DNA of 64,000 nucleotides from Escherichia coli (GCF_016903815.1 NZ_CP069973.1); one strand, 5' to 3'; positions 8,623 through 60,037 are shown, counted from the first letter of the stretch. Notes: generated from the letters alone by a model not told the origin. Numbers and translations: made by a program.

Positions 8623-9558
8623 TTATTTCACTTCAACCACATTCAGTCGTAACTCATCCAACTGATTTTCATCTTCTTCAGGCTGCCAACCCGCCGGTTG
8701 TAGAGGGAGCTCTTCGCGATCAAACGCCAGATCACCCCCGTTAACCACTTCAGAACCGTGGGTAATGCCTTTGAAATCGAACAGGTTGGTATCGCACAGA
8801 TGCGACGGCACCACATTCTGCATCGCGCTGAACATCGTCTCGATACGCCCTGGATAACGTTTATCCCAGTCACGCAACATGTCAGCAATCACCTGACGTT
8901 GCAGGTTAGGCTGTGAACCGCACAGATTGCACGGAATAATCGGGAATGCTTTTGCATCGGCAAAGCGCTGAATATCTTTCTCGCGGCAGTAGGCCAGCGG
9001 ACGAATCACAATATGTTTGCCATCATCGCTCATCAGTTTCGGAGGCATACCTTTCATCTTGCCGCCGTAGAACATATTTAAGAACAACGTTTGCAGGATA
9101 TCGTCACGATGGTGACCCAGCGCGATCTTCGTCGCTCCCAGTTCCGTTGCGGTACGGTAAAGAATTCCGCGACGAAGACGAGAACACAGTGAGCAAGTGG
9201 TTTTGCCCTCCGGAATCTTCTCTTTCACGATACCGTAAGTGTTCTCTTCCACAATCTTGTACTCAACGCCCAGCTTTTCAAGATACTCGGGCAGAACGTG
9301 TTCCGGGAAGCCCGGTTGTTTTTGATCGAGGTTGACAGCCACCAGCGAAAAATTGATTGGCGCGCTTTGCTGCAAATTGCGCAGAATTTCCAGCATGGTA
9401 TAGCTGTCTTTACCCCCGGAGAGGCAAACCATGATGCGATCGCCTTCTTCAATCATATTGAAGTCAGCAATGGCTTCGCCCACGTTACGACGCAGACGTT
9501 TTTGTAATTTGTTCAGGTTGTATTGTTCTTTCTTTGTAATTTGTTGATTTTCTTGCAT
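8623..9558 (-). CDS. ttcA: tRNA 2-thiocytidine(32) synthetase TtcA
   Basis: 311-aa ORF ([33 protein letters not shown]...) with the PP-loop SGGKDS and CxxC motifs. Confidence 0.95.
9509..9534. other. candidate Rac attL core (TTGTTCAGGTTGTATTGTTCTTTCTT) inside the 5' end of ttcA
   Basis: Matches the 26-bp Rac att core as I recall it from the literature. It lies about 75 bp from the 3' end of intR. No second copy was found by eye in this window. Confidence 0.45.
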
Positions 9559-9609
9559 TATTTCAGTTCTCTGGTACTAAATGGGGCAAATTGGGGGCAA
9601 ACTTTGCAA

Positions 9610-10845
9610 CTATGATAACCGCGCATTCAACATGGCTACCTGTTCGTCGTTCATGTCATCAATCCACATACCGTAAATTTCATACACCATCTGCGCAGTT
9701 TCATGCCCCATTTGGCTGGCTATAAATGCCGGGTTCGCTCCTGCCGTCAACAGCCAGCAGGCAAAAGTATGCCGCGTATGGTACGGATTACGGCGGCGAA
9801 TACCAGCACGTTTTACTGCTGCATTCCACCTTGCCCCCAAACTGCTTACCGAGTAATAAGGTTTTTGTTTTCCGTTACACACCCTGGGCATGAAAACAAA
9901 ATGCAGTTTTTGCTTTTCGGTTCTGCCGTACTCCCGATGATAAAAGGTGATTTCGCTTTTGCGATGATGCCCGGTCAGTTTGTATTGCTCCTTCAGTGCT
10001 TCAAGAGCAGGCTGCAGTAGTGTTACCGTCCGGATCCCCGCATTTGTTTTTGGGGGACCGAACATATCCAGTATCGTCAGGTTTCTTCTGACATTCACAA
10101 CTCCCTTCTCGAAATCCACATCCTCCCACGCCAGAGCAGCCAGTTCCCCGTGACGAAGCCCGGAGTATACGGCAAATTTCCACAAGTTCTGGCTCTGTCC
10201 TTTTTCACTTTCCATTAATGCATTGAATTCTGTTTTAGATAACGGGTCAGGCTTTATTCTGTTTCTCTGTAATTTCTTTACTCCTTCAAATGGTTTGGTT
10301 GATATAAATCCCGACTGATACGCAAAACGTAACAACGAACAGAGCAGGGCGATATAGTTATCAACTGTGCGCACGGTTCTTCCTTTTTTGTTGGATCTTG
10401 GATTATCCAGGTAAAGCGTTTCTCCATGCAGCAGTTCATTCCGGTAGTTTAAGATATCGCTATAACGAATATGCGATATCGGAGTACTCTCACAAATTAT
10501 TATCCTGAGTGTTTTTAATTGTGATTTCGTTTTCTTCATTGTGTTTGTTGTTAACTCTGTTTCTTTAATTTTTGTCCAGATATCACAAAGCTCCCCGAAC
10601 GTTTTTATGACCCTCGTTGTCACCATTTTTGCCCCAGTGCTGGACTGGGGAAAACGTCTTAAATACTCAAACTCACCGGAATTGATTTCATGAACTATCA
10701 ACGCTCTTAAATTCCCGGCTTTTTTAATGTTACTGTTAGTAACCTCCCAGCCTTTCAATGTTTCCCGACATCGTTTTCCTCGAAACATGAACCAGATGCG
10801 AATGTATTTACCTCGAATCTCGACACCTGTTGGTAATTTAGACAT
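9610..10845 (-). CDS. intR: tyrosine integrase IntR
   Basis: 411-aa ORF with the tyrosine-recombinase C-terminal catalytic region (HTRHTFACWLL...GHETAQMVYEIY), adjacent to ttcA. Confidence 0.9.
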   Translation of the reverse strand: MSKLPTGVEIRGKYIRIWFMFRGKRCRETLKGWEVTNSNIKKAGNLRALIVHEINSGEFEYLRRFPQSSTGAKMVTTRVIKTFGELCDIWTKIKETELTTNTMKKTKSQLKTLRIIICESTPISHIRYSDILNYRNELLHGETLYLDNPRSNKKGRTVRTVDNYIALLCSLLRFAYQSGFISTKPFEGVKKLQRNRIKPDPLSKTEFNALMESEKGQSQNLWKFAVYSGLRHGELAALAWEDVDFEKGVVNVRRNLTILDMFGPPKTNAGIRTVTLLQPALEALKEQYKLTGHHRKSEITFYHREYGRTEKQKLHFVFMPRVCNGKQKPYYSVSSLGARWNAAVKRAGIRRRNPYHTRHTFACWLLTAGANPAFIASQMGHETAQMVYEIYGMWIDDMNDEQVAMLNARLS

Positions 10846-10846
10846 A

Positions 10847-11062
10847 TCATGAGTCTTTGATAAACTGATTTATCTTTGGATAGTTATACCAGATAATCCC
10901 TCGCTTACTGTCTGGCTTCCCTAAAGGAGATACTCGTTTGAAGTGGAAGCCTTCCACCCAACAGTTCTGGCGGTATGCTTCAATTTGTCTGGCCCCCAGA
11001 CCAGTGCGAAGCATCAGGCCGTATTCAACCATCCACTCTTCATTAAAGATTACTTGTGCCAT
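10847..11062 (-). CDS. xisR: excisionase XisR (YdaQ)
   Basis: 71 aa from the internal Met ([32 protein letters not shown]...), immediately upstream of int. Confidence 0.8.
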
Positions 11063-11161
11063 CGCATCACCTCTGGCAGGCGCCAATGTTAGACTTAAAT
11101 TGACGCCCGATGTTGATTATTAATAATCAGCTATGAAGTTTTAATTTGAATACAATGCAAT

Positions 11162-11350
11162 TCACGAGGACTGAAGTTTCTCGCAATTAAAATTTATCAG
11201 TTTTACTTTCTGCTCTCTGGAAACGCCTGCTTCTTTTTTACCTGAGAGCATTTTTTCGCATTCTGATTTCGTTAGTTTAGATTTTGAATATCTTGTCCAG
11301 TTAGTAGGAGTGCCACCTTCCTTTTCAATAGTGGCGGTAATTTTATACAT
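11162..11350 (-). CDS. ydaC: Rac prophage protein YdaC
   Basis: 62 aa from MYKITATIEKEGGTPTNW..., with GGAGG 6 nt upstream of this ATG. The ORF track extends it to 11422. Confidence 0.65.
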   Translation of the reverse strand: MYKITATIEKEGGTPTNWTRYSKSKLTKSECEKMLSGKKEAGVSREQKVKLINFNCEKLQSS

Positions 11351-11387
11351 GAACACCTCCATTATTATTTCCAGTGGTTCGTTTATT

Positions 11388-11537
11388 TCATCGTTCGAGT
11401 GCTTCTTTTTCACTTCCACCATAACCGGTTCGGGATTCGCATCCGTTACACTTCGCTCGGTAATATCCTGAAATGGCTTTCACCGTTACTGATGGACAAC
11501 CACAAAATGGACATGGTTTAACATTGTCATATCTCAT
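11388..11537 (-). pseudogene. ralR: RalR (Lar) restriction-alleviation / type I toxin gene with a premature TGA
   Basis: The minus-strand product MRYDNVKPCPFCGCPSVTVKAISGYYRAKCNGCESRTGYGGSEKEALER stops at TGA, where I recall TGG (W50) in the 64-aa K-12 protein. The downstream frame would otherwise continue NKRTTGNNNGGVHV to 11343. Confidence 0.55.
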
Positions 11538-11592
11538 AATTTTTCTCATAAAAATATTTCAAGTTGGCGGTGCATTACACCGCCAGGCTGAA

Positions 11593-12402
11593 TTATTCCT
11601 CTGAATTATCGATTACACTGTATTCCCCGGTTAATACAGAGGAATCTGCAGGATCGATTGTCAGTGGTTCCTTTTCATCCATTGATACTGCACGCTGGAT
11701 CTCAATTGATACGGGCAGATATTTGAACAGGCGACGAATAGCCGTTTTCTTTGCCATTTCTTCCCAGTGAGTTACCCACGGCCCGTTATTACCAGCTTTA
11801 CTCTGGCTGCGCACCAGCTCAATCTGTTTGCGCGTCATAACTTCAAACTGAGTACCTCCGTCTTTCAGTCTTGCGACAGCATAGACGTGGGTAACAGGGG
11901 CATCTTCGTTTTCTCCTGGGCGGTGTATTAACTTTTCATCAAGGCCAAATTCGAAATTAAACTCGTCACCTTCACGGACAACACGGGCTGACAAGCTGGC
12001 GATTTGACCTGAACGGCGAGCCAGATCAATCATGCCGCGATAGCCAATGATTAGCTGAACGTTTTTTTTACCGCTCTTTTCGTTTTTATTACCAAAAGGC
12101 AGTAAATATGCATGACCGAGGGCGCTACCGGGCTCAAGTCCGAGCTGTGAACACTGTACGATTGCACTGACAAAACTCATAGTGTCACAGTTTCCTAACG
12201 CCGGAACTTTACGAATTTCTGTGGTGGCGATACGGATCATACGTTCAGCCGTCATATGGCGTGGAAGAGCTGCTGCCAGTTGCTCTTTCATTGATGGCTG
12301 GTTAATAAAACTAATCACGTCGTTATTTTTAATTGCTGCTGGTGCACGGTTTCCCTGAGTTTTTTGCAGATCGGCTTTTGCGATTGGTGGTTGCTTAGTC
12401 AT
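11593..12402 (-). CDS. recT: recombinase RecT (single-strand annealing protein)
   Basis: 269 aa from [23 protein letters not shown].... It overlaps the recE stop. Confidence 0.95.
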
Positions 12403-14995
12403 TTGCATATTCCTTAGCCCAGCGGGGCAGTGATAACGTCTTAATAGCTGGCCATTCATCGGTATTGAGGCAGTCAGCCAGGGTTCGCAGATTGCGGTGA
12501 TATTCCAGCTGACCTGCCAGTTTTGCTTCTTCGCCCATCATGAAAATTTCAACCGGATAACGTCCGCATTCAATAGTTGTGCTGGCAACCAGAAAAACGA
12601 AAGTTGGCTGCACTCCAAACTGTGCTTCATAACCGTCACTGTAGAATGCATCCTGAACGTGATAGCGGTAGTCGTAATAAGCGGTTTTGAATCGTTGAAT
12701 ATCCGCCGTAGTTTTCACGTCCATGATCCAGTGAAATTCAGGGATAATTTTGTCCGGACGGCACCGACACAAAATTGCTGTTTCAGGATCTTCCCAGTAA
12801 ATTGATGATTCAGCGTGTCCGGCGCTTTCAACAAGCCATTGCCCCAGCGGCAAAGCCATAACGCTCTGATACATGAGTTCAATTTTCCGGCCTTCTTCGG
12901 CAGTGATAACCGTTTTTCCTGTGCTTGCGCATTCCCTCAGAAACGCTTTCTCTTCTTCTTTTCCGGAGTTTGTCCGGCGGTTAAATTCAGGTGCTACGAT
13001 AAAGCGGTTACTGAATTCTTCCGGCTCAAGTACCCGGCAGTGGAAAGCGGTTCCTAAATCGAGCGTTTTTGTCTTTGTGGTGTCCACGGGGGCATTTTTA
13101 CGCCACAAATACAGTGCCGGAGTATCAGCAATGTCATCGAGCTGAGACTTACTGACACCGGGACCCGCGTGGTAATTCTCATTCGAAATTCCGTAATAAA
13201 TACCTGGCTCTATGTCTTCTACGATTACGGGATCTGCGACTTCGCCAGTTTCATCACTGCAATCGCGATGCGGATCGCTGCCAGCATTCTCATTGTGCGG
13301 ATGTTCAGCGCCTTCCATTTCCTCCGGATCATTTTCCTTAGCTTCAACCTGACTCTCTTCATCGAATGTTTCCTGGTATGTTGCGTCGCCCATCACCGCA
13401 CCACAGTCAGGGCAGTTATCCCCGCCAGTCTGGCCGCAGGCATTGCAGGCTATTTCCGGTTCCTGTTGCACTACTGGCTCAGGTTGATTCATATCCGGGC
13501 TGGTTTTTTCCGTTTCTGGCTGGTTCTGGTACACACAATCGCGAGTCTGGATCCCCTTTACCCATTTCGGATCGTTCGGGTCGCTAATTCCGTCAACAAA
13601 TTCACCACGTGATGCAGCAAGCAATTTATCGGCATCGACAGGATTTTTTGATGGAATGTTTTTCCGGGCTTCATGGAGTTCTGCCCGCAGTTCCTGATAT
13701 TTCGCATCAACAGAATTTACCTGTGACTGAGCATCCAGCGGCTGCGTGTCCTGATGATGTTCAGTTGCGTCCGGTTCCATTGTTTCAGCCTCTCCCTGTT
13801 CAACTGCCGTTGTTCCAGATGGTTGCGGTTTTTCTTCATCATCCTGTTTTCCTTCTTCTGTTACTCGCTGCGGCATCGGGGCAGAGGAGCGACCGCAGGC
13901 AATATCCACGATTTCCGGATCAGGGTTGGCATGATCGGTTTCAGTCAGTACTTTGTTCAGATATTCAGTGACGTGCGCGGGGATGACCTCGATCCCAATT
14001 GGTGCTTCTTTTACGGACGCAACCACGATGGCGCGGGAATAATCCAGCCCGCCAGGCATGGTGATGAATTTGTCGCGGAAAACAGAAAAGGGCGGTTTAT
14101 TTTCAGCGATAATTTCCTCAATGCGTTTAGCGTGTGCCGGATGAAGGTTATAGATGTCCAGATCCATTGAACGGGCCAGTACGCCAGTGGCTACGTCGCG
14201 CGCCAGTGACGTCAGATCGTGTACGAAACCTTCGCCGCGATCGGTGAGGTTTCCGCCGCCAGCATTAGCACCGGAAGCCGTGCGAGTGATGTGTGAAACA
14301 CGATTACCCTTCATCCACTCTTTTGTCAGCAGTCCTCGATCGGTGTAGTCAGCGTTCAGGTATGCTTCGAAAAAAGCAGTTATCAGTCCCAGGTTTGAAT
14401 TACCAGGATTAGGGAAAACTTTGTCAGTGTCACGAACCAGTTTGTGGAGTTCGCGAATTTCCAGCGGGTCGAGCAGGCTGGTTTTGTGGGAAACAGCCAG
14501 GGCAGTAACAGCCGGTAGTTCTTCAGCCCGAGCAATGTGTAATGCCTGGAGTCCGTCGCGTGAAACGTGCGTTACCGGTTTTTCGCTGCCGTGTTGAGCA
14601 AGCCAACGAATGGGCAGTTCCTGGCCAGAAATTGGGAGTAGCATATTCTCCTCAATCTCAGTCATGTCTTCGCCGTTGACGTTGGTATTGCCTTGATAGT
14701 GAGCGTTGTCTGGTGCTGCTCCCGGTTTTAGTTCCCATGTCATGGAGTCTTTGCTGAGTTGATAGCGTTCACTCCAGGTAAAATCGATCTCACCTTCAGC
14801 GGGCAGGTCATTAACGACAGGAAAATTCGTGGCAACAGCTTTAAAATAGCTGCTCAGTTTTTTACCTGACTTAACGATCAGGTAGTCCAGAGTGGCACAG
14901 GTCGATTCAAAATCGTTGCTTGCCCACAGGACGACGTCAGGTTCACCGGATGATTTTTTCGCTTTCCGTAACAGGAAGAGTGGTTTTGTGCTCAT
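12395..14995 (-). CDS. recE: exodeoxyribonuclease VIII RecE, full length
   Basis: 866-aa ORF ([29 protein letters not shown]...) with the C-terminal nuclease domain. Confidence 0.95.
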
Positions 14996-15096
14996 TGTTT
15001 TTTAACCTCAACTCAGATTAAAATTCGTTTTGTTCAGTGAATGATCTTGCCGGATACACACTGTTCATAGCCTGCGTCATACGCAGGCTATTTCTT

Positions 15097-15372
15097 TCAG
15101 ATTTCACCTTTTAATTTCATTGCAATTAGAGTTGCCAGAAATTCGGCTTTTTTTTCTGTGGGCAGATTCTTTCCGATATGCACCAGGCACATTTTTTTGA
15201 CACCTTCATCAAGTGTTTTTACGTTGCCTGATGGACCATCGATATCAACCACAGTGAATGGGGTTTCTTTATTTTCTGTTTTAATTACGTAGCCAATGCG
15301 CTTTCCTTCCAGATTCACCTCGTGAACAATGTCATCGGTAGTTACAACAGTGGCTTCATAATTGGTAATCAT
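15097..15372 (-). CDS. racC: RacC
   Basis: 91 aa from MITNYEATVVTTDDIVHEVNLEGKRIGY.... Confidence 0.85.
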   Translation of the reverse strand: MITNYEATVVTTDDIVHEVNLEGKRIGYVIKTENKETPFTVVDIDGPSGNVKTLDEGVKKMCLVHIGKNLPTEKKAEFLATLIAMKLKGEI

Positions 15373-15446
15373 GTTTTTCTCCTTAATTAAGGTTGAGCGA
15401 ATACCTGCCATTTCTGGCATAAATTCAGTTTCGAATAGTCAATTAA

Positions 15447-15617
15447 TTAAAGTTCATGTGCCATCTGGTCTTTTTCGGCACAAGCTTCACTGCAATATTT
15501 TCTCGGTTCGTCTTTTGATAAAATCCCGTGCATGAAGTGAAGCATTCTTTCAATAGCTTTGCTTTCTTCAACGTCTTTTTTGCAAAGGTGGTAAGCACAT
15601 TTTATTTTCTTAGTCAT
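15447..15617 (-). CDS. ydaE: YdaE, small Cys-rich (metal-binding) protein
   Basis: 56-aa minus-strand [59 protein letters not shown]. It is below the track cutoff and abuts kilR. Confidence 0.8.
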   Translation of the reverse strand: MTKKIKCAYHLCKKDVEESKAIERMLHFMHGILSKDEPRKYCSEACAEKDQMAHEL

Positions 15618-15838
15618 CACCATGACTCCGCCTTTACAGGTAAACCATCACGACCGAGGAAGACTTTAATCATGCGGTCAGTAATGCATGTTTTTGTGGT
15701 CAGGTTACGAATATATAGTTTTCGCTTTTTAATATTGTTTGCCGAGGCAATATATGTCCGGCCTTCATGAAGAACATAATCGCCAGGAGTCACACACTGA
15801 CGTGGTATTTCATCAGTTCCGAAGTGATGTGCAATCAT
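15617..15838 (-). CDS. kilR: KilR, FtsZ-directed cell-division inhibitor
   Basis: 73 aa from [35 protein letters not shown].... Confidence 0.85.
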
Positions 15839-16279
15839 AATTATCTCCATTTTTACAAATGAACTTTGTTGATGCGGTGCCTGGTGCCTCCAGGTGACTG
15901 CAACCAGTTAACAATTACAGTCGGCTTTCCCACCCAAACCAATAAGGACTAACATGACTTTTAACTGTGCCACGTGCGCTTAGCCGCATTCACCGCATCA
16001 CAAAATTCACTTTAAAAAGGGCGGACATCAGCCGAACTTCAAGAAAAAAACTGATGCCGCCAGGACTACACACAGCAATGTCGTTATTTACAACCGGAGG
16101 CGCACTCCCACCATTTAAATTTAACAGACAAGACCGACTCTTTATGGATATCGGAAATGCGCCTTCGTGTTGTGCCCGGTTTTATTTCACCACCTCCGGG
16201 CTTCGGTGGTCTCGGCTATACCCCTACAGCGAGAGCTTGTGTTAACATTTCAATACCCTTACAGTTGAGAGTTATTGAT

Positions 16280-16768
16280 ATGTTGGATGTATTTACTCCA
16301 TTGTTGAAACTTTTTGCTAACGAGCCACTCGAAAGACTTATGTATACGATTATCATTTTTGGTCTCACTCTCTGGCTGATACCGAAAGAGTTTACTGTCG
16401 CATTCAATGCTTATACTGAAATACCTTGGCTCTTTCAGATTATCGTTTTTGCCTTTTCTTTCGTGGTCGCCATTTCCTTCTCAAGATTGCGAGCACATAT
16501 TCAAAAGCATTATTCATTACTACCAGAGCAACGAGTATTGCTTCGTTTATCTGAGAAAGAAATCGCTGTATTTAAAGATTTCCTTAAAACAGGAAATCTT
16601 ATTATCACTTCTCCTTGCCGTAACCCGGTTATGAAAAAATTAGAACGGAAGGGCATCATTCAACATCAGAGTGATAGCGCAAACTGTTCTTATTATCTCG
16701 TCACCGAAAAATACTCCCATTTTATGAAGTTATTCTGGAACAGCAGGAGTAGACGTTTTAATCGTTAG
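16280..16768 (+). CDS. sieB: superinfection exclusion protein SieB
   Basis: 162 aa from MLDVFTPLLKLFANEPLERLMYTIIIFGLTLWLIPKEF..., with 2 TM helices. It is oriented opposite to the early-left operon. Confidence 0.85.
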   Translation: MLDVFTPLLKLFANEPLERLMYTIIIFGLTLWLIPKEFTVAFNAYTEIPWLFQIIVFAFSFVVAISFSRLRAHIQKHYSLLPEQRVLLRLSEKEIAVFKDFLKTGNLIITSPCRNPVMKKLERKGIIQHQSDSANCSYYLVTEKYSHFMKLFWNSRSRRFNR

Positions 16769-16920
16769 CTTACTGTGTGCTTCTCCAACCATCGGCGCGC
16801 ACCAGTTTCGGTTTTAAATGTTTTGCTTTTGGTATACGTCATGGCAGTGAACGTTCCATCCTGGTTGGGGAACACGCCGCACACCAGGGATTCGTTGTTG
16901 CCGAGGTCGATTTTTTGCAT
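16765..16920 (-). CDS. ydaF: YdaF
   Basis: 51-aa minus-strand ORF MQKIDLGNNESLVCGVFPNQDGTFTAMTYTKSKTFKTETGARRWLEKHTVS. Confidence 0.7.
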   Translation of the reverse strand: MQKIDLGNNESLVCGVFPNQDGTFTAMTYTKSKTFKTETGARRWLEKHTVS

Positions 16921-16930
16921 TTTGCGAATC

Positions 16931-17065
16931 TCACATCTTGTTGCTACGTATAGCGACTTCTGCCTGCCAGAGATCCCAGTCGTTGCTGCGTAAAGCCTGC
17001 ACAGCCTGGTTGTAAGTGATACCGCAACAATCCATCAAATACTGAACTACTTCGTAATGCACCAT
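16931..17065 (-). CDS. ydaG: YdaG
   Basis: 44-aa minus-strand ORF MVHYEVVQYLMDCCGITYNQAVQALRSNDWDLWQAEVAIRSNKM. Confidence 0.7.
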   Translation of the reverse strand: MVHYEVVQYLMDCCGITYNQAVQALRSNDWDLWQAEVAIRSNKM

Positions 17066-17236
17066 CTTATCTATCCCCTTAACGCCGGGTGGCGGAACTA
17101 ACTGCTGCACTGCAAAATTTGAATCCCGCCGTCATGTTCATACGCCTCGGGCTGGCTACTTAACCCCTGACCACTGCCTGGTAACTCGAAGTATTGCCCG
17201 GCGTTCTGTGGGGCGGGGTGGGTTGGTAGGTATATA

Positions 17237-19391: not shown

Positions 19392-19397
19392 CTGACC

Positions 19398-28714: not shown

Positions 28715-28851
28715 AATCTTAACTACAATATGATTCATTTTGATGATTGTTTCATAAGGAACAGTGAAGTAAGATCTAAGAGGAGTTAAATTTTATACAG
28801 TATAATCATAATATTGCAGCAAGGTGGTTATAATTGAAAGAATATTTAGAT

Positions 28852-42920: not shown

Positions 42921-43083
42921 TTGTTAATTACGTACACTCTGTTACAGAGATGTGATGGTGTCTTTAATTAAATCGATGATGCTCCTGGAGAAAAGCATTG
43001 CGTGGCCTCGTAATCGCTATATCTACTATTATGTCGCCTGAAACCCACTTCGGTGGGCTTTTTGTTGTCTGGAGTTTTAATAA

Positions 43084-47346: not shown

Positions 47347-47351
47347 ATCCC

Positions 47352-48095: not shown

Positions 48096-48633
48096 AAACG
48101 GGGGCCGAAGCCATCCGGGCGCTGGCCATGCAGATCCCGGCATTTCGTCAGAAACTGAGCGACGGCTGGTACCAGGTACGCATTGCCGGGCGTGATGCAG
48201 GTGAAACCGAATTGTCTGCCCGTCTTAATGAGCCGCTGGAAATGGTGCCGTGATCCATATCGTGCCGCGTCTGGCAGGAGCCAAAAGTGGCGGTGTGTTT
48301 CAGGCTGTGCTGGGGGCGGCTGTTATGGCGGTTGCTATATGGATGCCGGGGGTAGGAATTATGGCGAGTAATCTGCTGTTTTCTCTCGGTGCCAGTATGA
48401 CGCTTGGCGGTGTTGCACAGATGCTGGCCCCTAAACCCAGAACTCCCCGCACACAGACAACGGATAACGGCAAACAGAACACCTATTTTTCTTCACTGGA
48501 TAACATGGTTGCCCAGGGCAATGTTCTGCCGGTTCTGTACGGTGAAATGCGCGTGGGGTCACGCGTGGTTTCTCAGGAGATCAGCACGGCAGACGAAGGG
48601 GATGGTGGTCAGGTTGTGGTGATTGGTCGCTGA
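47993..48633 (+). pseudogene. tail assembly protein I, split by a frameshift
   Basis: Two ORFs (47993..48253 and 48250..48633) together are colinear with the 223-aa lambda gpI. The junction ...LNEPLE / NGAVIHIVPR aligns with lambda ...LHETLPDGAVIHIVPR, so one A appears to be missing from the A3 run at 48240-48242. Confidence 0.8.
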
Positions 48634-48693
48634 TGCAAAATGTTTTATGTGAAACCGCCTCCGGGCGGTTTTATCGTTTATGGAGCATGACGA

Positions 48694-51600: not shown

Positions 51601-52173
51601 GGTAATCCTCCGGCATTTTCCCTGACACCGGACGGGCGACTGACGGCGAAAAATGCCGATATCAGCGGTAGCGTGAATGCGAACTCCGGGACGCTCAACA
51701 ACGTCACGATTAACGAGAACTGTCGGGTTCTGGGAAAACTGTCCGCGAACCAGATTGAAGGCGATCTCGTTAAAACAGTGGGCAAAGCTTTCCCCCGGGA
51801 CTCCCGTGCACCGGAGCGGTGGCCATCAGGGACCATTACCGTCAGGGTTTATGACGATCAGCCGTTTGACCGGCAAATTGTTATTCCAGCGGTGGCTTTC
51901 AGCGGTGCCAGACATGAACGGGAGAATAGCGATACTTATTCGTCATGCCGCCTGATAGTGAAGAAAAACGGGGCTGAAATTTATAACCGAACGGCTCTGG
52001 ATAATACTCTGATTTACACGGGTGTTATTGATATGCCTGCAGGCAGTGGCGTAATGACACTGGAGTTTTCTGTATCAGCATGGTGGGTAAATGGCTGGTA
52101 TCCCACAGCAAGTATCAGCGATTTGCTGGTTGTTGTGATGAAGAAAGCCACTGCAGGCATCACGATTAGCTGA
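48694..52173 (+). CDS. tail tip / host-specificity protein J
   Basis: 1159 aa, colinear with lambda gpJ ([34 protein letters not shown]...). Confidence 0.95.
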
Positions 52174-52191
52174 ATTTTATAACCCAGATAC

Positions 52192-52216
52192 GGGCGCCAG
52201 AAATGGCGCCTTTTTT
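52192..52216 (+). terminator. rho-independent terminator after J
   Basis: GGCGCC-agaaat-GGCGCC followed by TTTTTT. Confidence 0.65.
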
Positions 52217-52240
52217 ATTGCAGAAAAGCGAGAGGTAATT

Positions 52241-52840
52241 ATGCGTAAATTATGTGCTGTTATTCTGTCCACAGTAGTCTGGCTGGTCGCCGCTGGTACG
52301 CCAGCGAGCGCAGCAGAGCATCAGTCCACACTAAGCGCCGGGTATCTTCAGACCCATACTGATATGCCCGGCAACGATGACCTGAAGGGCATTAACGTGA
52401 AATACCGTTATGAATTTACGGACACGCTGGGGCTGGTGACGTCATTCAGTTATGCCAATGCCAAAGATGAGCAAAAAACGCATTACAGCGATACCCGCTG
52501 GCATGAAGATTCAGTGCGTAACCGCTGGTTCAGCATGATGGCGGGGCCGTCTGTACGCGTGAATGAATGGTTCAGTGCTTATGCGATGGCAGGTGTGGCT
52601 TACAGCCGTGTTTCAACTTTTTCCGGGGATTATCTCCGCGTAACTGACAGCAAGGGGAAAACGCACGATGTGCTGACCGGAAGTGATGACGGTCGCCACA
52701 GCAACACGTCTCTGGCGTGGGGGGCTGGCGTGCAGTTTAACCCGACCGAATCCGTGGCCATTGATATTGCTTATGAAGGCTCCGGCAGTGGTGACTGGCG
52801 CACTGACGGTTTCATCGTGGGTGTCGGTTATAAATTCTGA
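52241..52840 (+). CDS. lomR: Lom/Ail-family outer-membrane beta-barrel protein
   Basis: 199 aa with a signal peptide (VVWLVAAGTPASA) and the C-terminal ...GVGYKF typical of OMPs. Confidence 0.9.
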   Translation: MRKLCAVILSTVVWLVAAGTPASAAEHQSTLSAGYLQTHTDMPGNDDLKGINVKYRYEFTDTLGLVTSFSYANAKDEQKTHYSDTRWHEDSVRNRWFSMMAGPSVRVNEWFSAYAMAGVAYSRVSTFSGDYLRVTDSKGKTHDVLTGSDDGRHSNTSLAWGAGVQFNPTESVAIDIAYEGSGSGDWRTDGFIVGVGYKF

Positions 52841-52866
52841 TTAGCCAGGTAACACAGTGTTATGAC

Positions 52867-52893
52867 AGCCCGCCGGTTCAGGCGGGCTTTTTT
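52867..52893 (+). terminator. rho-independent terminator after lom
   Basis: AGCCCGCC-ggttca-GGCGGGCT followed by TTTTTT. Confidence 0.7.
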
Positions 52894-52904
52894 GTGGAGT
52901 GGAT

Positions 52905-55304
52905 ATGGCAGCAGTAAAAATCTCAGGTGTGCTGAAAGATTGTGCGGGAAAACCAATACAGAACTGCACTATTCAACTGAAGGCAAAGCGTAACAGCACC
53001 ACGGTACTGGTGAACACGGTGGCCTCTGAAAATCCGGATGAAGCCGGGCGTTACAGCATGGATGTTGAGCATGGCCAGTACAGCGTCATCCTGCTGGTTG
53101 AAGGTTTTCCGCCTTCACATGCCGGGACCATTACCGTCTATGAAGGCTCCAGACCAGGTACGCTGAATGATTTTCTCGGTGCCATGACGGAAGAGGATGT
53201 CATGCCGGAGGCATTGCGTCGTTTTGAGGCAATGGTGGAAGAAGTGGCACGCAACGCCGAAGCCGCCTCTCAGAGCGCAGCGGCGGCAAAGAAATCCGAA
53301 ACTGCAGCGGCATCATCGAAGAACGCGGCGAAAACCTCAGAAACGAATGCAGCTAATAGTGCACAGGCGGCAGCGACCTCAAAGACTGCATCGGCAAACT
53401 CTGCGACAGCAGCCAAAAAATCAGAAACCAACGCGAAAAACAGTGAGACAGCCGCAAAGACGAGCGAAACCAACGCAAAGTCCAGCCAGACGGCAGCGAA
53501 AACCAGCGAAACGAATGCCAAAGCCAGTGAAACTGCGGCAAAAAACAGCCAGGCTGCAGCAGCTGAAAGCGAGAGCGCGGCAGCCGGTTCTGCGACTTCA
53601 GCAGCTGGATCAGCAACTGCTGCGGCTAACAGCCAGAAAGCTGCGAAGACGAGTGAAACTAACGCAAAGTCCAGCCAGACGGCAGCGAAGACCAGCGAAA
53701 CGAATGCCAAAGCCAGTGAAACTGCGGCGAAAAGCAGTCAGGATGCAGCGGCCCAAAGCGAGAGTGCCGCAGCCAGTTCTGCAAGCGCGGCGGCTGCTTC
53801 TGCCACTGCATCAGCTAACAGTCAAAAAGCAGCAAAAACCAGTGAAACCAACGCAAAGGTGAGCGAAACAGCGGCTGCGAACTCAGCGAAAGCATCGGCA
53901 GCAAGCCAGACGGCAGCTAAAGCAAGCGAAGATGCAGCCAGAGAGTACGCAAGCCAGGCTGCGGAGCCGTATAAATATGTCTTACAGCCGCTGCCTGATG
54001 TGTGGATACCATTTAACGATTCGCTGGATATGATTACGGGCTTTTCGCCATCATATAAAAAAATTGTTATTGGTGATGATGAAATAACGATGCCTGGCGA
54101 CAAGGTTGTTAAGTTTAAACGCGCATCAACTGCCACATATATCAATAAATCAGGCGTATTTAGTGTTGCTAAAATTGATGAGCCACGATTTGAAAAAGAA
54201 GGTTTATTGATTGAAGGACAGCGCACTAACTATTTTGTTAAATCCAATACTCCCGCTGAATGGACGAGTACCAGCAATATCGATAAAACTAATAATGGTG
54301 TTGATGAATTTGGTTTTTCATATGCCAAAATGCGAACAAAAGATAATATGACAGGACAATCATCTGCACTTAGTCTGCATACATGCAGTGCATCCCGGGG
54401 GATTGATGTTAGTGGCGATAATAAGTATTGCACTGTTTCATGCAGGGTTAAAGCTCCTGATGGTCTTCGTTGTCGTTTGCGTTTTGAAAAATACGATGGG
54501 TCGGTTTATACATTTTTAGGAGATGCTTATTTAACTTTCGGAACTCTGATAATAGAAAAAACTGGCGGGGCAGCCAATAGAATAGCAGCTACTGCAACTA
54601 AAGATCCGGTTACAGGGTGGATTTTCTATGAGGCAACTATAGAAGCTGTTGAAGGTGAAACCTTAATTGGCGCAATGATTCAGTATGCGCCGAAAAAAGG
54701 TGGTATAACTGAAGCGGGAGATTATATTTACCTTGCAACACCACAATTTGAAAACGGCGGATGTGCTTCATCTTTTGTTATTACGACAACTGCACCCGCA
54801 ACCCGCTCCAGTGATATGGTGACGATCCCAACTGAAAATAATATCTATAATAGACCGCTTACGTGTCTTGTCGAGGTTAATAGAAATTGGGGCGATATTC
54901 CTCCTAATGTAGCACCGCGTATTTTTGATTTTTCTGGTGTGCCACCTATTGAGTCAATTACATACGCTTTTAACACAACTGAGAAATATTACGGTCAGCT
55001 TTATATGCAAACTTATAAAGCGTCGACAAGTACTTACGTTTCTAGTGTGTTTGCTGGTCGAGCTGATGTTCGAAAATTCATTGGTGGTTTTAATATTTAT
55101 TCTGATGGTACTAAACGAGTAGTTTCTAACGGTGAGGCTACTAAAACTATGAAAACGGAGTGGACGGGCGTAAAAACACGGACCTTTATTCGAATTGGAG
55201 GTCAAGCCACATCGGGAACTCGTCATCTATTCGGCCATTTGAGAAATCTTCGTCTCTGGCATAAAGAATTAACTGATGCGCAAATGGGGGAGAGTATTAA
55301 ATGA
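52905..55304 (+). CDS. side tail fibre protein (Stf family) with a divergent C-terminal receptor-binding region
   Basis: 799 aa. It has the lambda Stf-like N-terminus (MAAVKISGVLKDCAGKPIQNCTIQLKAKRNSTT...), an Ala/Ser/Thr-rich repeat shaft and a distinct C-terminal 400 aa. Confidence 0.85.
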   Translation: MAAVKISGVLKDCAGKPIQNCTIQLKAKRNSTTVLVNTVASENPDEAGRYSMDVEHGQYSVILLVEGFPPSHAGTITVYEGSRPGTLNDFLGAMTEEDVMPEALRRFEAMVEEVARNAEAASQSAAAAKKSETAAASSKNAAKTSETNAANSAQAAATSKTASANSATAAKKSETNAKNSETAAKTSETNAKSSQTAAKTSETNAKASETAAKNSQAAAAESESAAAGSATSAAGSATAAANSQKAAKTSETNAKSSQTAAKTSETNAKASETAAKSSQDAAAQSESAAASSASAAAASATASANSQKAAKTSETNAKVSETAAANSAKASAASQTAAKASEDAAREYASQAAEPYKYVLQPLPDVWIPFNDSLDMITGFSPSYKKIVIGDDEITMPGDKVVKFKRASTATYINKSGVFSVAKIDEPRFEKEGLLIEGQRTNYFVKSNTPAEWTSTSNIDKTNNGVDEFGFSYAKMRTKDNMTGQSSALSLHTCSASRGIDVSGDNKYCTVSCRVKAPDGLRCRLRFEKYDGSVYTFLGDAYLTFGTLIIEKTGGAANRIAATATKDPVTGWIFYEATIEAVEGETLIGAMIQYAPKKGGITEAGDYIYLATPQFENGGCASSFVITTTAPATRSSDMVTIPTENNIYNRPLTCLVEVNRNWGDIPPNVAPRIFDFSGVPPIESITYAFNTTEKYYGQLYMQTYKASTSTYVSSVFAGRADVRKFIGGFNIYSDGTKRVVSNGEATKTMKTEWTGVKTRTFIRIGGQATSGTRHLFGHLRNLRLWHKELTDAQMGESIK
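53457..53880 (+). repeat. tandem 189-bp (63-codon) repeats within stf, about 2.2 copies
   Basis: Units start at 53457 and 53646 (AAGACGAG(C/T)GAAAC(C/T)AACGCAAAGTCCAGCCAGACGGCAGCGAA...), with a partial third unit from 53835. Confidence 0.8.
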
Positions 55305-55582
55305 AAGATTTAACACTCAAATTTGCAGACAGGGCCGACTTTTCGGCCTTTATGGAGAGCATTGGCTATTATGATGACGAGTCGATGCAGGATGATATTC
55401 TTATTGACGTGATAGGTAATGTGTACAAAGAAACCGGAGAACTTACTGAAGATGGCGAGCCGGTATGTGTTAAGGAGGACGGATATTTTGTAAATGTGCG
55501 CATCATTAATGATTCGCAAATATCGTCATTATTCGATGAACACGCGGTTGCTGTTGAGCATCAACTCCGTAGCTGGATGTGA
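55301..55582 (+). CDS. hypothetical acidic protein downstream of stf
   Basis: 93 aa, with an ATGA overlap with the stf stop. No Tfa-family similarity recognised. Confidence 0.5.
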   Translation: MKDLTLKFADRADFSAFMESIGYYDDESMQDDILIDVIGNVYKETGELTEDGEPVCVKEDGYFVNVRIINDSQISSLFDEHAVAVEHQLRSWM

Positions 55583-55591
55583 GGAAGAAAA

Positions 55592-56296
55592 ATGGCTACA
55601 TCGACAGTAATTCCTGATGACATCAAAACGCTAAAGGGAGATGTCAGTAAGGCAAAGGAAGATATTTCCTCAATTAACGTAAAAGTATCAACGCTTCAGA
55701 CTGATATGGACAGTGCAAAGCAGGATATCAGTACCAGATACACAAAAACAGAAGTGGATAATAAGCTGAAAAACAAAGTGGAAGTGAACGATCTGGAAAG
55801 TGGTCGTTATGGCGGAGATTTTTACCCGCTGACTGGCCGTGAAGCGTTTTATTTATGGGGATTGGGCACAACTACAGCGGCGGCAAATCTTTATCTTAAT
55901 CCTGACCCTGCAATTTCGTCTGTGCTGCGGTCAACATCGTCTATCCGCTATAAACATTCAGTAGAGACGATAGATTCAGAGCACGCCGATCTCATTTTCA
56001 GGATGCGCCCTGTGTGGTACAGGTCGCAATGCGAAAATGACAGGCGTGACTGGGGATTCTATGGATTGATTGCCGAGGAAGTAGGAGAAATTGCCCCTCA
56101 GTTTGTTCACTGGCGACCAGCCAACGAAGATGATGCACCGGAAACCATTTCCAGCAATGGCCTTGTTGCCGAAGGTGTAATGTACGAACGTCTGGTTGTT
56201 CCACTGATTCACCATATCCAGAAGCTGACTGAAAGAGTTGATGAACTTGAGTCAGAATTAAAGTTGTTATCCGTTTCCCGAAGCGATATCGGATAA
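55592..56296 (+). CDS. short tail-fibre-like protein with a C-terminal intramolecular chaperone (peptidase S74-like) domain
   Basis: 234 aa with an N-terminal coiled coil. The C-terminal segment SSIRYKHSVETI...FYGLIAEEV...ERLVVPLIHHIQKLTERVDELE resembles the endosialidase/T5 pb1 auto-cleaving chaperone domain. Confidence 0.65.
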   Translation: MATSTVIPDDIKTLKGDVSKAKEDISSINVKVSTLQTDMDSAKQDISTRYTKTEVDNKLKNKVEVNDLESGRYGGDFYPLTGREAFYLWGLGTTTAAANLYLNPDPAISSVLRSTSSIRYKHSVETIDSEHADLIFRMRPVWYRSQCENDRRDWGFYGLIAEEVGEIAPQFVHWRPANEDDAPETISSNGLVAEGVMYERLVVPLIHHIQKLTERVDELESELKLLSVSRSDIG

Positions 56297-56306
56297 AGGA
56301 GGCGTA

Positions 56307-56600
56307 ATGGATATAACACCTTTCCTTCATGCACTTTGTGCTGTGGCTGCGCAGGTACTGGTTGGTCTTTTTACCGGAAACTGGGCTTACGGGGCGATAG
56401 CTGGTTGTACGTTCTTCATTGCGCGTGAACATACCCAGGCAGAATATCGCTGGATTGAAATGTTCGGGCATGGCAAGCGAATGAATATGCCGTGGTGGGG
56501 CGGTTTTGATCCGCGTGCGTGGGATGTGGCAAGCCTGATGGATTTTGCTGTGCCGGTGGTGGCGTGTCTGCTGGTCTGGCTGTTGGTTAATCGTGGGTGA
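56307..56600 (+). CDS. hypothetical 3-TM membrane protein
   Basis: 97 aa with SD AAGGAGG upstream. It is the last gene of the fibre cassette. Confidence 0.55.
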   Translation: MDITPFLHALCAVAAQVLVGLFTGNWAYGAIAGCTFFIAREHTQAEYRWIEMFGHGKRMNMPWWGGFDPRAWDVASLMDFAVPVVACLLVWLLVNRG

Positions 56601-56614
56601 AAAAAGGTGAGCTG

Positions 56615-56730
56615 TATATGCAACGGAGGAAGAAACCTCGTTGCGGGAAGCCTGGAAGAAGTATCGGGTGTTGCTGAACCGTGTTGATACGTCAACTGCA
56701 CAGATATTGAATGGCCAGCACTGCCGTAGG
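56615..56730 (+). pseudogene. 3' remnant of a tail-fibre assembly (Tfa-family) gene
   Basis: It reads ...[26 protein letters not shown], then a 1-nt loss breaks the expected (D)IEWPALP-stop ending. There is no upstream Tfa coding sequence. Confidence 0.55.
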
Positions 56731-56826
56731 GTAAAACATATAAATTCTATAATTAGATGTATCTTTCCATTTACGGCAAGGAAGGGGGCTTGGAAGACGT
56801 AAGGCATCTCACACCGAGATTATTTT

Positions 56827-57418
56827 TTATATGTCAGGTGTCTGAAGTTTTGCTTTGGCTCTTAAAATGGTTTGCCGCGAGGTTTTGAATTCCCGGGCAA
56901 TGGCACTTATACTTACACCTGACTTAATCCGTTCGAATACCACCTGTTTCTGTTCTTCATTTAACACAGGTGGTCGACCAAAACGTTTCCCTGCGCCCCG
57001 GGCTCTTACTATCCCGGAATGAGTGCGTTCAAGTAAAAGGTCTCGTTCAAATTCAGCGACTGCTGAAATTACTTGCATCATCATTTTTCCTGTTGGACTG
57101 GTCAGGTCAATGCCCCCCCAATGCTAAGCAATGCACTCTGATACCTGTTTCGGTCAGTTGTTCCACTGTTTTCCTGATATCCATTGCATTACAACCAAGG
57201 CGATCCAGTTTTGTCACAATCAATTGATCACCACATTTCAGGCGAGCAAGCAACCGGTTAAAACCAGGACGCTCACTGGTTGCTGCTGAGCCGCTAATGT
57301 GTTCTTCGATTATTTGCTGAGGTTTGATTTTAAAACCTGCACTTTCGATTTCCCGGCGTTGATTTTCGGTGGTCTGATCCAGCGTTGATATCCGACAGTA
57401 AGCAAAAATTCGAGACAT
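56827..57418 (-). pseudogene. pin: Pin-family serine DNA invertase, frameshifted in a G7 (C7 on the plus strand) run
   Basis: The N fragment (57107..57418) ends ...VHCLALGGH-stop. The C fragment [21 protein letters not shown]...HTH lies in another frame. Removing one G from 57113-57119 restores ...[16 protein letters not shown]..., as in PinQ/PinR. Confidence 0.85.
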
Positions 57419-57734
57419 AGTGAGACTCTATACGAAATTGGTGCTCATATCATAATGCATCTCAGAAAATAATTTTGATTATTTTTGTGCATGTTTGTAT
57501 GTACACGTTCGAAAATAAACGAATGCGTATGCAACCCCGTAATTTTGGTGAGACCCAAAATCGATTTTGTGAAAAATGGCTTTAACTCGGTTTGTTTTTC
57601 GAGTTCCGGGCGGACTCAAGGAAGAAGAATAGTGTTGCGTGTTATTTTAACCAGATTTCAAGTTGTTTGGTCGTGGAAAAGTGGAGCAAAATGTTGTTAA
57701 AGTGGAAAAATGATAAAAAAGTAAGTTTATTATA

Positions 57735-57968
57735 TTACATTTTACCATTTAAATTTTGGTTGTCTTTAAGAGCTGATATCGCTGTTTGTAATAATTCTTT
57801 GTTATCCAGCCATGATTTTTTCTTTATGTTTCCTTCAATGTAATCAAGCAATGTTCTGGTATTGATAGGTCTTCCCTGTTTTGCTACTTCCACTACAGCA
57901 TCCCCTAGGATAATTCTGACTTCAGGAAGCTGCGCAGGGAACCACTTTAGGGTGTCTTTTGATTTCAT
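57735..57968 (-). CDS. ydfK: YdfK/YnaE family prophage protein (cold-shock inducible in K-12)
   Basis: 77 aa from MKSKDTLKWFPAQLPEVRIILGDAVVEVAKQGRPINTRTLLDYIEG.... Confidence 0.85.
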   Translation of the reverse strand: MKSKDTLKWFPAQLPEVRIILGDAVVEVAKQGRPINTRTLLDYIEGNIKKKSWLDNKELLQTAISALKDNQNLNGKM

Positions 57969-58753
57969 GAATATATTCCTTAAAATATTATTGATTTTCA
58001 TTGCGATATTGTATGTCTGATTCAGGATATGTTGACTTATACATCGGTTTTGTCTGGGTTATTGGATATGCCAATCCCTAATTTTATTAGAGCATGACTA
58101 AAAATGCTGAATATGATAAGGAGCGAAGTGATTATCAGTATGCTGTTCATATAGCCTCGAATTAGTAATGTGTTATATATGATATAGTTGACAATTTTTA
58201 TCCTGGGTGTTCTTAAAGTTCGTAGATAAACATTGTCGTTTCAGGTATACAGGAATGCTAACAGATGGCGGCAAAAATCAGGCGGTTTATGGCGCAAGCT
58301 GAAGTGGCAACTGCAAACTATCTTATGCAGAGACTCTACACGGATTGGGTTTAAAAGTATACATAGATAACAGTTTTTATCTGAAGAAGAAAAATATCAA
58401 GGTGATATAGCCTATATGCCTTTGATGCGGAGGAATGAATGTGATGGGAGTGATGTATCTGAATAGTTGAAAAACCGCAGACACGCCTTATGCAAGAACG
58501 TGCTGCGGTTGGCTGGTAAATTTTTCGATAGTGCGAGTATTGAATGATTTCCAGCCGTTATTGATTTTACGCGTAACTCCATGAAAAAACTACTTATCTG
58601 TTGAGGAGTTTTTTTGGGGCATATATGGGACAGAAATAGGCCCCAGATAGACACTGAGATCGAACTTAGGATGCTTTTTAAAAAATGCAACTATCTGAAA
58701 AAACCTAGAAAACGCCAAGGAAACCACAGGATGGGAAAAAACACCTGTGAATT

Positions 58754-60037
58754 ATGGATTTCCAGTTATATTCGCTCGGCGCAGCGTTAGTGTTTCATGA
58801 AATATTTTTTCCTGAATCATCAACGGCAATGGCGTTAATTCTGGCAATGGGAACCTACGGTGCAGGTTATGTGGCGCGTATTGTCGGAGCATTTATTTTC
58901 GGCAAAATGGGCGACAGAATCGGGCGTAAAAAAGTGCTCTTTATTACCATCACCATGATGGGGATCTGTACCACCTTAATTGGTGTGCTGCCGACCTATG
59001 CACAAATTGGTGTGTTTGCGCCAATTTTGCTGGTGACGCTGCGTATTATTCAGGGGCTGGGGGCAGGCGCGGAAATTTCCGGTGCCGGCACGATGCTGGC
59101 GGAATATGCACCAAAAGGTAAGCGCGGAATTATCTCCTCATTTGTTGCTATGGGGACTAACTGCGGAACCTTGAGCGCAACGGCAATCTGGGCCTTTATG
59201 TTCTTCATTCTCAGTAAAGAGGAACTGCTGGCGTGGGGATGGCGTATACCGTTCCTGGCGAGCGTTGTCGTGATGGTCTTTGCTATCTGGTTGCGTATGA
59301 ATCTGAAAGAAAGCCCGGTCTTTGAGAAGGTTAACGACAGCAACCAACCGACAGCAAAACCTGCACCTGCTGGTAGCATGTTCCAGAGCAAATCCTTCTG
59401 GCTGGTAACAGGGCTGCGTTTTGGTCAGGCTGGTAACTCCGGTTTAATTCAGACTTTCCTTGCAGGCTATTTAGTGCAGACGTTATTGTTTAACAAAGCA
59501 ATTCCAACAGGTGCATTGATGATCAGTTCGATTCTCGGCTTTATGACCATTCCGTTCCTTGGTTGGTTATCCGATAAAATTGGTCGCCGGATCCCGTATA
59601 TTATTATGAATACCTCTGCGATTGTGCTGGCGTGGCCAATGCTTTCTATCATCGTAGATAAAAGCTATGCCCCGAGCACCATTATGGTTGCACTGATTGT
59701 GATTCATAACTGTGCGGTGCTGGGATTATTTGCTCTGGAAAACATTACCATGGCAGAAATGTTCGGCTGTAAAAACCGCTTTACCCGGATGGCTATTTCT
59801 AAAGAAATTGGTGGTCTTATCGCTTCCGGTTTTGGTCCTATCCTGGCGGGTATTTTCTGCACCATGACGGAATCCTGGTATCCGATCGCCATTATGATCA
59901 TGGCATATTCAGTGATTGGTTTAATCTCTGCGCTGAAAATGCCAGAAGTGAAAGACCGTGATTTAAGTGCGCTGGAAGACGCTGCGGAAGATCAACCGCG
60001 TGTTGTCAGAGCTGCGCAACCTTCCATAAGTCTTTAA
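58754..60037 (+). pseudogene. ydfJ: MFS transporter YdfJ, 5'-truncated at the prophage junction
   Basis: 427-aa ORF starting at the internal MDFQLYSLGAALVFHEIFFPESS.... About 28 N-terminal codons of the ancestral gene are absent, and similarity to ydfJ begins around 58745. Confidence 0.8.

Follow-up and report, generated by a model that had tools for sequence, protein, structure and literature searches.

Chromosomal inversions between resident prophages have precedents in Escherichia coli. For O157:H7, inversions between homologous prophage regions are attributed to Iguchi et al. (2006, Gene 372:199) as that work is cited in PMC6379469, and Fitzgerald et al. (2021, Microb Genom; PMC8743559) found rearrangements that are biased to the terminus, bounded by prophages and associated with inverted repeats of at least 5 kb and at least 98% identity. 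Prophages that have lost excision through rearranged attachment (att) sites have been called "grounded" (Ramisetty & Sudhakari 2019, PMC6379469). Gene conversion from Rac to Qin at the ynaE/ydfK modules of K-12 was reported in the ER2796 paper (PMC4444293), an inversion not being among its reports, and the inversions described in a preprint on sequence type (ST) 131 are mediated by rrn. Here we analyze a stretch of 64,000 nucleotides of an E. coli chromosome (NZ_CP069973.1, assembly GCF_016903815.1), referred to below as the window, which carries a hybrid lambdoid prophage with a Rac-type left end at ttcA and a Qin-type right end at ydfJ. We conclude that a chromosomal segment of ~213 kb has very probably been inverted in E. 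coli ST405 and that one of the two resulting junctions lies in the window. Our literature search on ST405 or on a Rac/Qin inversion found no paper describing this inversion.

Gene calls were transferred from the RefSeq annotation of the near-identical strain 7/2 (NZ_CP023820.1, positions 1,532,823-1,596,823), and gene identities were settled by RefSeq annotation together with nucleotide identity to K-12, for which the MG1655 record was used throughout. Strains 7/2 and 103 serve as proxies for the window's genome; over window positions 40000-64000 the best matches in the collection differ by one indel. Judged by the annotation of 7/2, the gene content and coordinates given in the original prediction, which had been made from the window alone, are correct. 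In MG1655, Rac occupies 1,411,899-1,434,958 in the order ttcA(-), intR(-) ... stfR(+), tfaR(+), pinR(-), ynaE(-), ynaM(-), ttcC', uspF, and Qin occupies 1,632,277-1,652,745 in the order dcp, ydfG, rspR, ydfZ, ydfI, ydfJ(-), ynfT(+), ydfK(+), pinQ(+), tfaQ(-), stfQ(-) ... intQ', rspB. Window positions 5105-17228 are colinear with the ttcA/Rac left side at 98.6% identity, and positions 56619-64000 match the left flank of Qin at 98.3% identity in reverse orientation. The chromosomal flank at the right end (58754-64000) reads, in reversed K-12 order, 5'-truncated ydfJ (ydfJ', ~58754-60037, plus strand, assigned from the annotation and the K-12 comparison), ydfI(+), ydfZ(-), rspR (= ydfH)(-), ydfG(-) and the start of dcp(+); the K-12 map given in the original prediction, with this flank as the reversed Qin flank, agrees with the MG1655 record. 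The segment 56619-58512 matches both the right end of K-12 Rac (forward) and the left end of Qin (reverse), and therefore the tfa-pin-ynaE/ydfK modules are inverted repeats of each other in K-12, as had been claimed.

The two parents of this hybrid occur separately in the sister strain 222 (NZ_CP020516.1), which matches the left 12 kb and the right 10 kb of the window perfectly, at sites ~257 kb apart and in opposite orientations, and whose annotation contains two separate complete prophages in a K-12-like order. The ttcA prophage of strain 222 consists of ttcA, attL, a Rac-type prophage, gpJ, lom, stf, distal fibres, DinI, sitDCBA and attR, followed by uspF, ompN and nifJ. The ydfJ prophage runs from dcp ... 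ydfJ', ynfT, ydfK, pinQ, fibres, stf, lom and gpJ through a lambda-like set of tail and head genes and nohA into the Qin gene set; the equivalent ydfJ-type prophage in strain 7/2 terminates in xis, a Qin-type int and rspB. The gpJ, lom and tail-assembly proteins of the two prophages of strain 222 share identical WP accessions and are encoded in opposite orientations. The case in which ttcA and ydfJ would be natural neighbours in this lineage is excluded, as the K-12 order is kept in strain 222, which belongs to the same clone, and strain 103 is the exact mirror image of strain 222. The sitABCD genes (iron/manganese uptake) are carried as cargo just inside attR of the ttcA prophage (locus L004 of strain 222, 8760-12594; locus L006 of strain 7/2, 8752-12586).

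A genuine inversion predicts a second, reciprocal chimera, in which the uspF side of Rac is joined to the integrase side of Qin, and the search suggested by the original prediction found exactly this in strain 7/2, ~213 kb downstream; the same junction is present in strain 103. The first part of the reciprocal chimera in 7/2 comprises ydbH, ldhA, hslJ, nifJ, ompN and uspF, in reversed K-12 order, followed by sitABCD, DinI and the distal fibres of the ttcA prophage; the second part comprises stf, lom, gpJ, Qin-like tail, head and lysis genes, cspB/F, relBE, dicB, xis, IS66, the Qin-type int and rspB. The unique segment inverted between the two junctions measures 213,280 bp in strain 7/2 and 212,568 bp in strains 103 and 222.

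The attachment sites agree with the inversion. The 26-bp Rac-type attL core, TTGTTCAGGTTGTATTGTTCTTTCTT, lies on the plus strand at 9509-9534, beside ttcA and intR, where it had been proposed to be, and window position 9509 matches exactly the annotated left boundary of K-12 Rac (1,411,899). In the window this core occurs once, even when up to three mismatches are allowed (0 occurrences expected by chance), and no second Rac-type core was found there in that search. The original prediction had noticed the lack of a second core at the right junction; what sits there instead is the 11-bp Qin-type core, GAAATCCATAA in K-12 orientation, on the minus strand at 58752-58762, which forms the right boundary of the hybrid element. 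K-12 Qin has the 11-bp core at both ends, and the sequence around the window's copy is identical to the left junction of K-12 Qin; the core is also found beside the Qin-type integrase of strain 7/2 (int, locus L007, 14746-16026), where the partner of the window's core lies between int and rspB (16064-16074). In strain 222 the Rac-type attR core is a direct repeat of attL, located between sitA and uspF (L004, 12569-12594). In strain 7/2 the search for the core retrieved an exact copy of this partner on the minus strand between uspF and sitA (L006, 8752-8777), ~249 kb from attL and inverted: attR is not lost but displaced and inverted. The window thus has the ttcA 5'-end integration and core that characterize a Rac-type prophage, without the matching direct attR (ttcC remnant) by uspF, and it has the ydfJ junction and the ynfT-ydfK-pinQ genes of a Qin-type prophage, the integrase and second core by rspB being absent from it.

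The switch of parentage can be delimited by a three-way alignment of the window with the two prophages of strain 222. These prophages are unrelated before window position 46626, ~97% identical over 46626-47850 (a homeologous zone of minor tail genes M/L/K on the plus strand, in which the window has the alleles of the ttcA prophage), identical over 47851-54121 and strongly diverged beyond. Positions 1-54121 of the window equal the ttcA prophage of strain 222 except for two single-base indels, and positions 54122-64000 equal the reverse complement of the end of its ydfJ prophage with 0 differences; against the distal end of the ttcA prophage of strain 222, positions 54122-58751 show ~30-60% mismatched columns. 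Because the ttcA-prophage alleles stand to the left of the identical block and the ydfJ-prophage alleles to its right, the crossover lies somewhere in 47851-54121. This zone (plus strand) is one copy of a 6,271-bp inverted repeat that spans the tail assembly gene, gpJ (48694-52173, plus strand, from the annotation of 7/2), lom (52241-52840, plus strand) and the first ~1.2 kb of stf, in its N-terminal part; the two copies in strain 222 show 0 differences and those in strain 7/2 differ only by a 1-nt indel at 48240. The original prediction had set the endpoints in the tail-fibre/invertase regions of two resident prophages, which is right with respect to the two prophages and wrong with respect to the tfa/pin module, the exchange having taken place upstream of it, in J-lom-stf.

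Several sequences in the databases touch on this repeat. GenBank records of "phages" derived from draft genomes and matching the prophage end at 48253, just inside the repeat, as is expected of short-read contigs that break at it. Three such records, vB_EcoS-666R9, -473R12 and -613R10, are 99.9-100% identical to the Rac-type prophage over window positions 26000-48253, which suggests that "phage" records of this kind are prophage fragments from short-read contigs. In the window, one A is missing from the repeat at 48240, which causes a frameshift in the tail-assembly gene, annotated as frameshifted in strains 7/2 and FDAARGOS_1281; the A is kept in the ttcA-side copies of strains 222 and 103 and in all ydfJ-side copies. 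The missing A, which disagrees with the grouping given by the single-nucleotide polymorphism (SNP) at 57772 described below, may reflect either a genuine mutation or a homopolymer error. The insertion sequence (IS) IS200C has inserted into the shared repeat at different places in two strains: in FDAARGOS_1281 it separates lom from stf (L018, 13038-13496), and in FDAARGOS_1279 it separates gpJ from lom (L019, 5736-6194); these insertions would cut down the uninterrupted homology available for flipping.

It had been predicted that an inversion of this kind would also flip dif and TerC. Canonical dif lies on the minus strand of MG1655 at 1,590,750 and on the plus strand of strain 7/2 at 1,638,100, and TerC lies on the plus strand of MG1655 at 1,609,162 and on the minus strand of 7/2 at 1,620,954, the strands being compared with the ttcA flank of 7/2 colinear to K-12. 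Both sites are located inside the segment and are reversed relative to K-12, and in 7/2 TerC has come to lie on the opposite side of dif, as anticipated. The FtsK-orienting polar sequence (KOPS) motifs (GGGNAGGG) change at dif from uniformly forward to uniformly reverse, and the GC skew is positive throughout the window's junction, as would be anticipated for an inversion that contains dif. With oriC between mnmG and mioC, at ~4,259,480 of 5,099,240 bp, the antipode falls at 1,709,860, so that dif lies ~72 kb before this point in the inverted state and would lie ~39 kb beyond it in the mirrored K-12-like state. The replichores are well balanced in both states, and since a dif-containing inversion keeps the polarity of replication and of KOPS and displaces dif by only ~111 kb, it should be almost neutral. 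Within the Tus/Ter fork trap, the relocated TerC should now block counter-clockwise forks, and the innermost trap would change from TerA...TerC to TerC...TerB and would still be functional.

The reciprocal junction, the inverted attR, the flipped dif and TerC and the gene order of strain 222 together support an inversion between two resident lambdoid prophages, as originally proposed. We envisage an ancestral K-12-like chromosome with two complete lambdoid prophages ~213 kb apart flanking dif, one of Rac type in ttcA, with sitABCD as cargo by attR, and the other of Qin type in ydfJ. The tail ends of the two prophages would have faced each other and shared the 6,271-bp identical inverted repeat, and a reciprocal homologous crossover within it would have reversed everything between the copies, dif and TerC included. 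Such a crossover would presumably be mediated by RecA; the prophage's own RecET (recT + recE, a homologous recombination system annotated at 11593-14995 on the minus strand) may possibly have contributed. One product would be the hybrid in the window, with Rac-type attL, int/xis, early, head and tail genes and a Qin-type distal fibre module and att junction; the reciprocal product would combine Rac-type distal fibres, sitABCD and attR with a Qin-type body and integrase.

The distribution of both gene orders was surveyed with junction queries against 5,426 complete E. coli genomes at a coverage of at least 80%. The inverted junction (query: window positions 40000-64000) was found in 26 genomes, 22 of them, the ST405 genomes, at ~100% identity, and the K-12-like junction (query from strain 222) in 90. 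Within ST405, strain KY1497 (AP019803) is inverted and strain WCHEC96200 is not. Strains 103 and 222, both isolated from urine in Boston and both with chromosomes of 5,162,123 bp, map onto each other as an exact reflection (x103 = 5,082,628 - x222), and a comparison of 28,281 bp spanning the junction revealed 0 differences between them. At SNP 57772, in ydfK, G is present in the window and strain 103 (inverted) and in strain 222 (non-inverted), and A is shared by FDAARGOS_1279, which is non-inverted, with the inverted strains 7/2 and FDAARGOS_1281. The four possible pairings of allele and orientation therefore all occur, and groups defined by bit score show a like mixing in further strains. 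The ttcA-intR ... gpJ-stf-pinQ-ydfK-ydfJ' chimera is also found in isolate 624 (NZ_OW967003.1, 840000-903000; this junction was the one examined), which belongs to an unrelated lineage and has a racR/ydaS/ydaT immunity region, an intact pinQ and different flanking alleles. Taken together, the mirror-image pair, the occurrence of both SNP alleles in both orientations and isolate 624 make it appear, as far as genome comparison goes, that the flip happened more than once. Two further sets of markers were considered and dropped: grouping the strains by the indels at 45904, 48240 and 56703 gives contradictory results, and a four-gamete test on a shared IS was uninformative, as the insertions of ~710 bp turned out to be IS200C at different sites in the inverted FDAARGOS_1281 and the non-inverted FDAARGOS_1279.

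Some observations weigh against this interpretation. The argument for recurrence draws on a single SNP, a single pair of mirror-image strains and a single isolate of an unrelated lineage rather than on a full phylogeny, and the homopolymer indels at 45904, 48240 and 56703, which are inconsistent among strains, may be sequencing errors. An assembler may also place a perfect inverted repeat of 6.3 kb the wrong way round, and one culture can hold both orientations; the orientation shown by any one assembly, the window's included, is therefore provisional. If this is taken to its extreme, the chromosome would always have the K-12 order, and assemblers would have resolved the repeat wrongly in some genomes. 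We regard this explanation as improbable. It would account for the perfection of the repeat over 6,271 bp, for the identity of strains 103 and 222 in everything except orientation, as expected of two alternative assemblies of one data type, for the scatter of orientation over the SNP-defined subgroups and for the breaking of short-read contigs at the repeat. The PacBio and Oxford Nanopore Technologies (ONT) reads usually employed for complete genomes easily span 6.3 kb, however, and the inverted order with coherent junctions is found in 22 independent complete assemblies from many laboratories and countries. Moreover, the unrelated lineage of isolate 624 has the same chimera with diverged sequence, and in O157:H7 the phenomenon has been demonstrated by optical mapping and long reads (PMC8743559).

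If the inversion is accepted as real, its agent could in principle have been a site-specific recombinase, namely Pin, an invertase that would have used ix-like sites, or IntR, which would have used a secondary att site. Invertases, like integrases, are able to flip DNA flanked by inverted sites, and the pin gene is ~2.7 kb away from the point at which the prophages diverge; Dorgai et al. (1993), as cited in PMC6379469, is the reference given there for such an inversion. The parentage nevertheless switches within 6.27 kb of perfect homology, upstream of tfa and pin, and the Rac-type core was found at attL and attR only. In the window, pinQ (~56827-57418, minus strand) carries an additional C at 57113 that the intact allele of FDAARGOS_1279 lacks, and is thereby frameshifted; the gene is likewise frameshifted in strains 7/2, 222, 103 and FDAARGOS_1281 and intact in isolate 624. 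Inverted repeats of the ix type, or other invertase-type crossover repeats, were looked for around pinQ and none were found. A site-specific origin is accordingly very unlikely, and from the frameshift in pinQ and the lack of ix-like repeats flanking it we infer that the event was one of general homologous recombination and was not mediated by an invertase. Lastly, lambdoid prophages are mosaic, and from the window alone a Rac-like phage with a Qin-like tail end, or a different ancestral gene order in the lineage, would be conceivable with no inversion at all, but this is scarcely credible given that two separate prophages in K-12 order are present in the same clone, in strain 222 and in about 88 further genomes, that the reciprocal chimera holds the missing attR together with the Qin-type int and att, and that the intervening ~213 kb including dif and TerC are reversed.

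An inversion between the two prophages would have consequences for both of them. By the geometry of the sites each hybrid is bounded by one Rac-type and one Qin-type att, and as neither has a matched pair of directly repeated sites, one-step excision by Int/Xis should be lost. The intR (9610-10845, minus strand) and xisR (10847-11062, minus strand) genes, assigned from the RefSeq annotation, match their K-12 counterparts in length, lie within the 98.6% identical block and are apparently intact. The original prediction described the element as locked in, and this holds for single-step excision by Int/Xis; it does not hold overall, as the repeats are still identical and inverted and both orientations coexist. 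The lock would rather be conditional, since a second crossover in the same repeats should restore both prophages. Two intact and apparently excision-competent prophages could thus be grounded together without mutation and released by the reverse event. The geometry further implies that the distal tail-fibre modules, which concern host range, would be exchanged between the two phages, and that sitABCD would be transferred from the Rac-type to the Qin-type prophage. In the inverted state, action of IntR/XisR on attL and attR, which then stand in opposite orientations, would turn the segment round again instead of excising it. Both phages would come to lie in tandem at ydfJ and the repeats would become direct, and as a corollary a complete Rac-type genome could then loop out through these repeats.

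It is tempting to regard the prophage pair as a reversible switch, in which excision, the fibre modules and sitABCD, the side and polarity of TerC and the position of dif change together; we put this forward as a speculative idea that is rather unlikely to be correct in full. If flipping were frequent inside populations and the two states differed in fitness, phage release or lateral transduction of terminus DNA, the pair would amount to a prophage-based contingency locus in a pandemic multidrug-resistant clone. In practical terms, ST405, a globally distributed multidrug-resistant lineage, is polymorphic for an inversion that spans the terminus, and this affects reference-based scaffolding, prophage calling and comparisons of synteny; each hybrid resembles one intact prophage and yet has mismatched att sites.

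The remaining content of the window can be described briefly. The left chromosomal flank, before ttcA, includes in the annotation of 7/2 HlyD/DHA2 genes, smrA, dgcM split by IS1, zntB and dbpA. The gene of the DHA2 efflux permease (1103-2558) carries a frameshift, and dgcM (3396-5405) is interrupted by IS1, whose transposase occupies 4393-5090; in isolate 624 dgcM is intact. The chromosomal gene ttcA (8623-9558, minus strand, from the annotation of 7/2) stands at the left junction in the region that is 98.6% identical to ttcA and the left part of Rac in K-12, and the final 24-50 bp of its 5' end come from the prophage side of attL. The body specific to the Rac-type prophage (9535-46625) is identical to the ttcA prophage of strain 222 except for one single-base indel, and it contains early, immunity, replication and lysis genes, trkG, terminase, a P22-like capsid, a tail tube gene and a tape measure gene of 3.2 kb; along the window the early genes between intR and trkG are, from the annotation of 7/2, ralR, recT, recE, kilR and sieB, then the immunity/replication and lysis genes. 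The early-left genes of Rac are represented by intR, xisR, ralR, recT, recE, kilR, sieB and ydaF, with trkG, at 98.6-99.9% nucleotide identity to K-12 Rac over 5105-17228 and 28270-30700. K-12 Rac as a whole aligns to the window in gapped colinear blocks (5105-17228, 28270-30700, 42261-44018 and 52651-53257), a pattern consistent with K-12 Rac being a deletion remnant of a phage like that in the window. The distal end derived from the ydfJ (Qin-type) prophage (54122-58751) comprises the C-terminal part of stf, tail-fibre genes, a tfa remnant (~56620-56729), pinQ, ydfK (~57735-57968, minus strand) and ynfT (~58037-58150, minus strand). Outside the window, the Qin-type prophage carries an anti-phage gene annotated as Kiwa KwaB-like near a truncated ISNCY transposase and queH (L005, 46628-47650; L007, 2030-3052), and an IS66-family element is found between its xis and int genes.

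Compared with the described systems, the locus is closest to the prophage-bounded inversions of O157:H7, with which it shares homologous inversions, prophage repeats flanking the terminus and the presence of both forms in isogenic strains. All the sequence features of the O157:H7 type are found: long inverted repeats, both junctions, both orientations and a segment that spans dif and Ter; specifically, the repeat here is 6.27 kb long and 100% identical, the two prophages lie on either side of dif, and the strain pair is a mirror image. The differences are in the host and in the prophages: ST405 is an extraintestinal, multidrug-resistant lineage of phylogroup D, the elements involved are the ttcA/Rac and ydfJ/Qin prophages, and the inversion is known here from sequences alone. 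Rac and Qin of K-12 have the same integration sites and the same att cores, and 98-99% identity in intR/xisR/recET/kilR/sieB/trkG and in ynfT/ydfK/pinQ. They are, however, deleted remnants of 23 and 20 kb with a shared inverted repeat of ~1.9 kb at ~98% identity, and they stand in non-inverted order in MG1655, whereas here both prophages are of full length and the shared repeat is perfect, 6.27 kb long and located in J-lom-stf.

Symmetric origin-terminus inversions, seen as X-shaped alignments, are mediated by rrn operons or IS elements, for instance the rrnD-rrnE inversion of W3110 and those of host-restricted Salmonella, and reciprocal exchange between inverted repeats on opposite replichores keeps strand bias, KOPS polarity and rough replichore balance. 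In contrast to these, the repeats here are tail genes of prophages, the segment makes up ~4% of the genome and is centred near dif, and the side and polarity of TerC are changed. The locus thus offers a natural example of dif and TerC reversed with polarity and replichore balance kept, which fits the known tolerance of the terminus to rearrangement. With grounded prophages it shares the loss of one-step excision through mismatched att sites with int and xis intact; it differs from them in that the cause would be a reversible inversion and not mutation or deletion, and in that two prophages are affected at once. We therefore see the ST405 inversion as a new instance of a known phenomenon that reveals no new mechanism, and that is of interest because it appears to have recurred and because it would ground two prophages reversibly.

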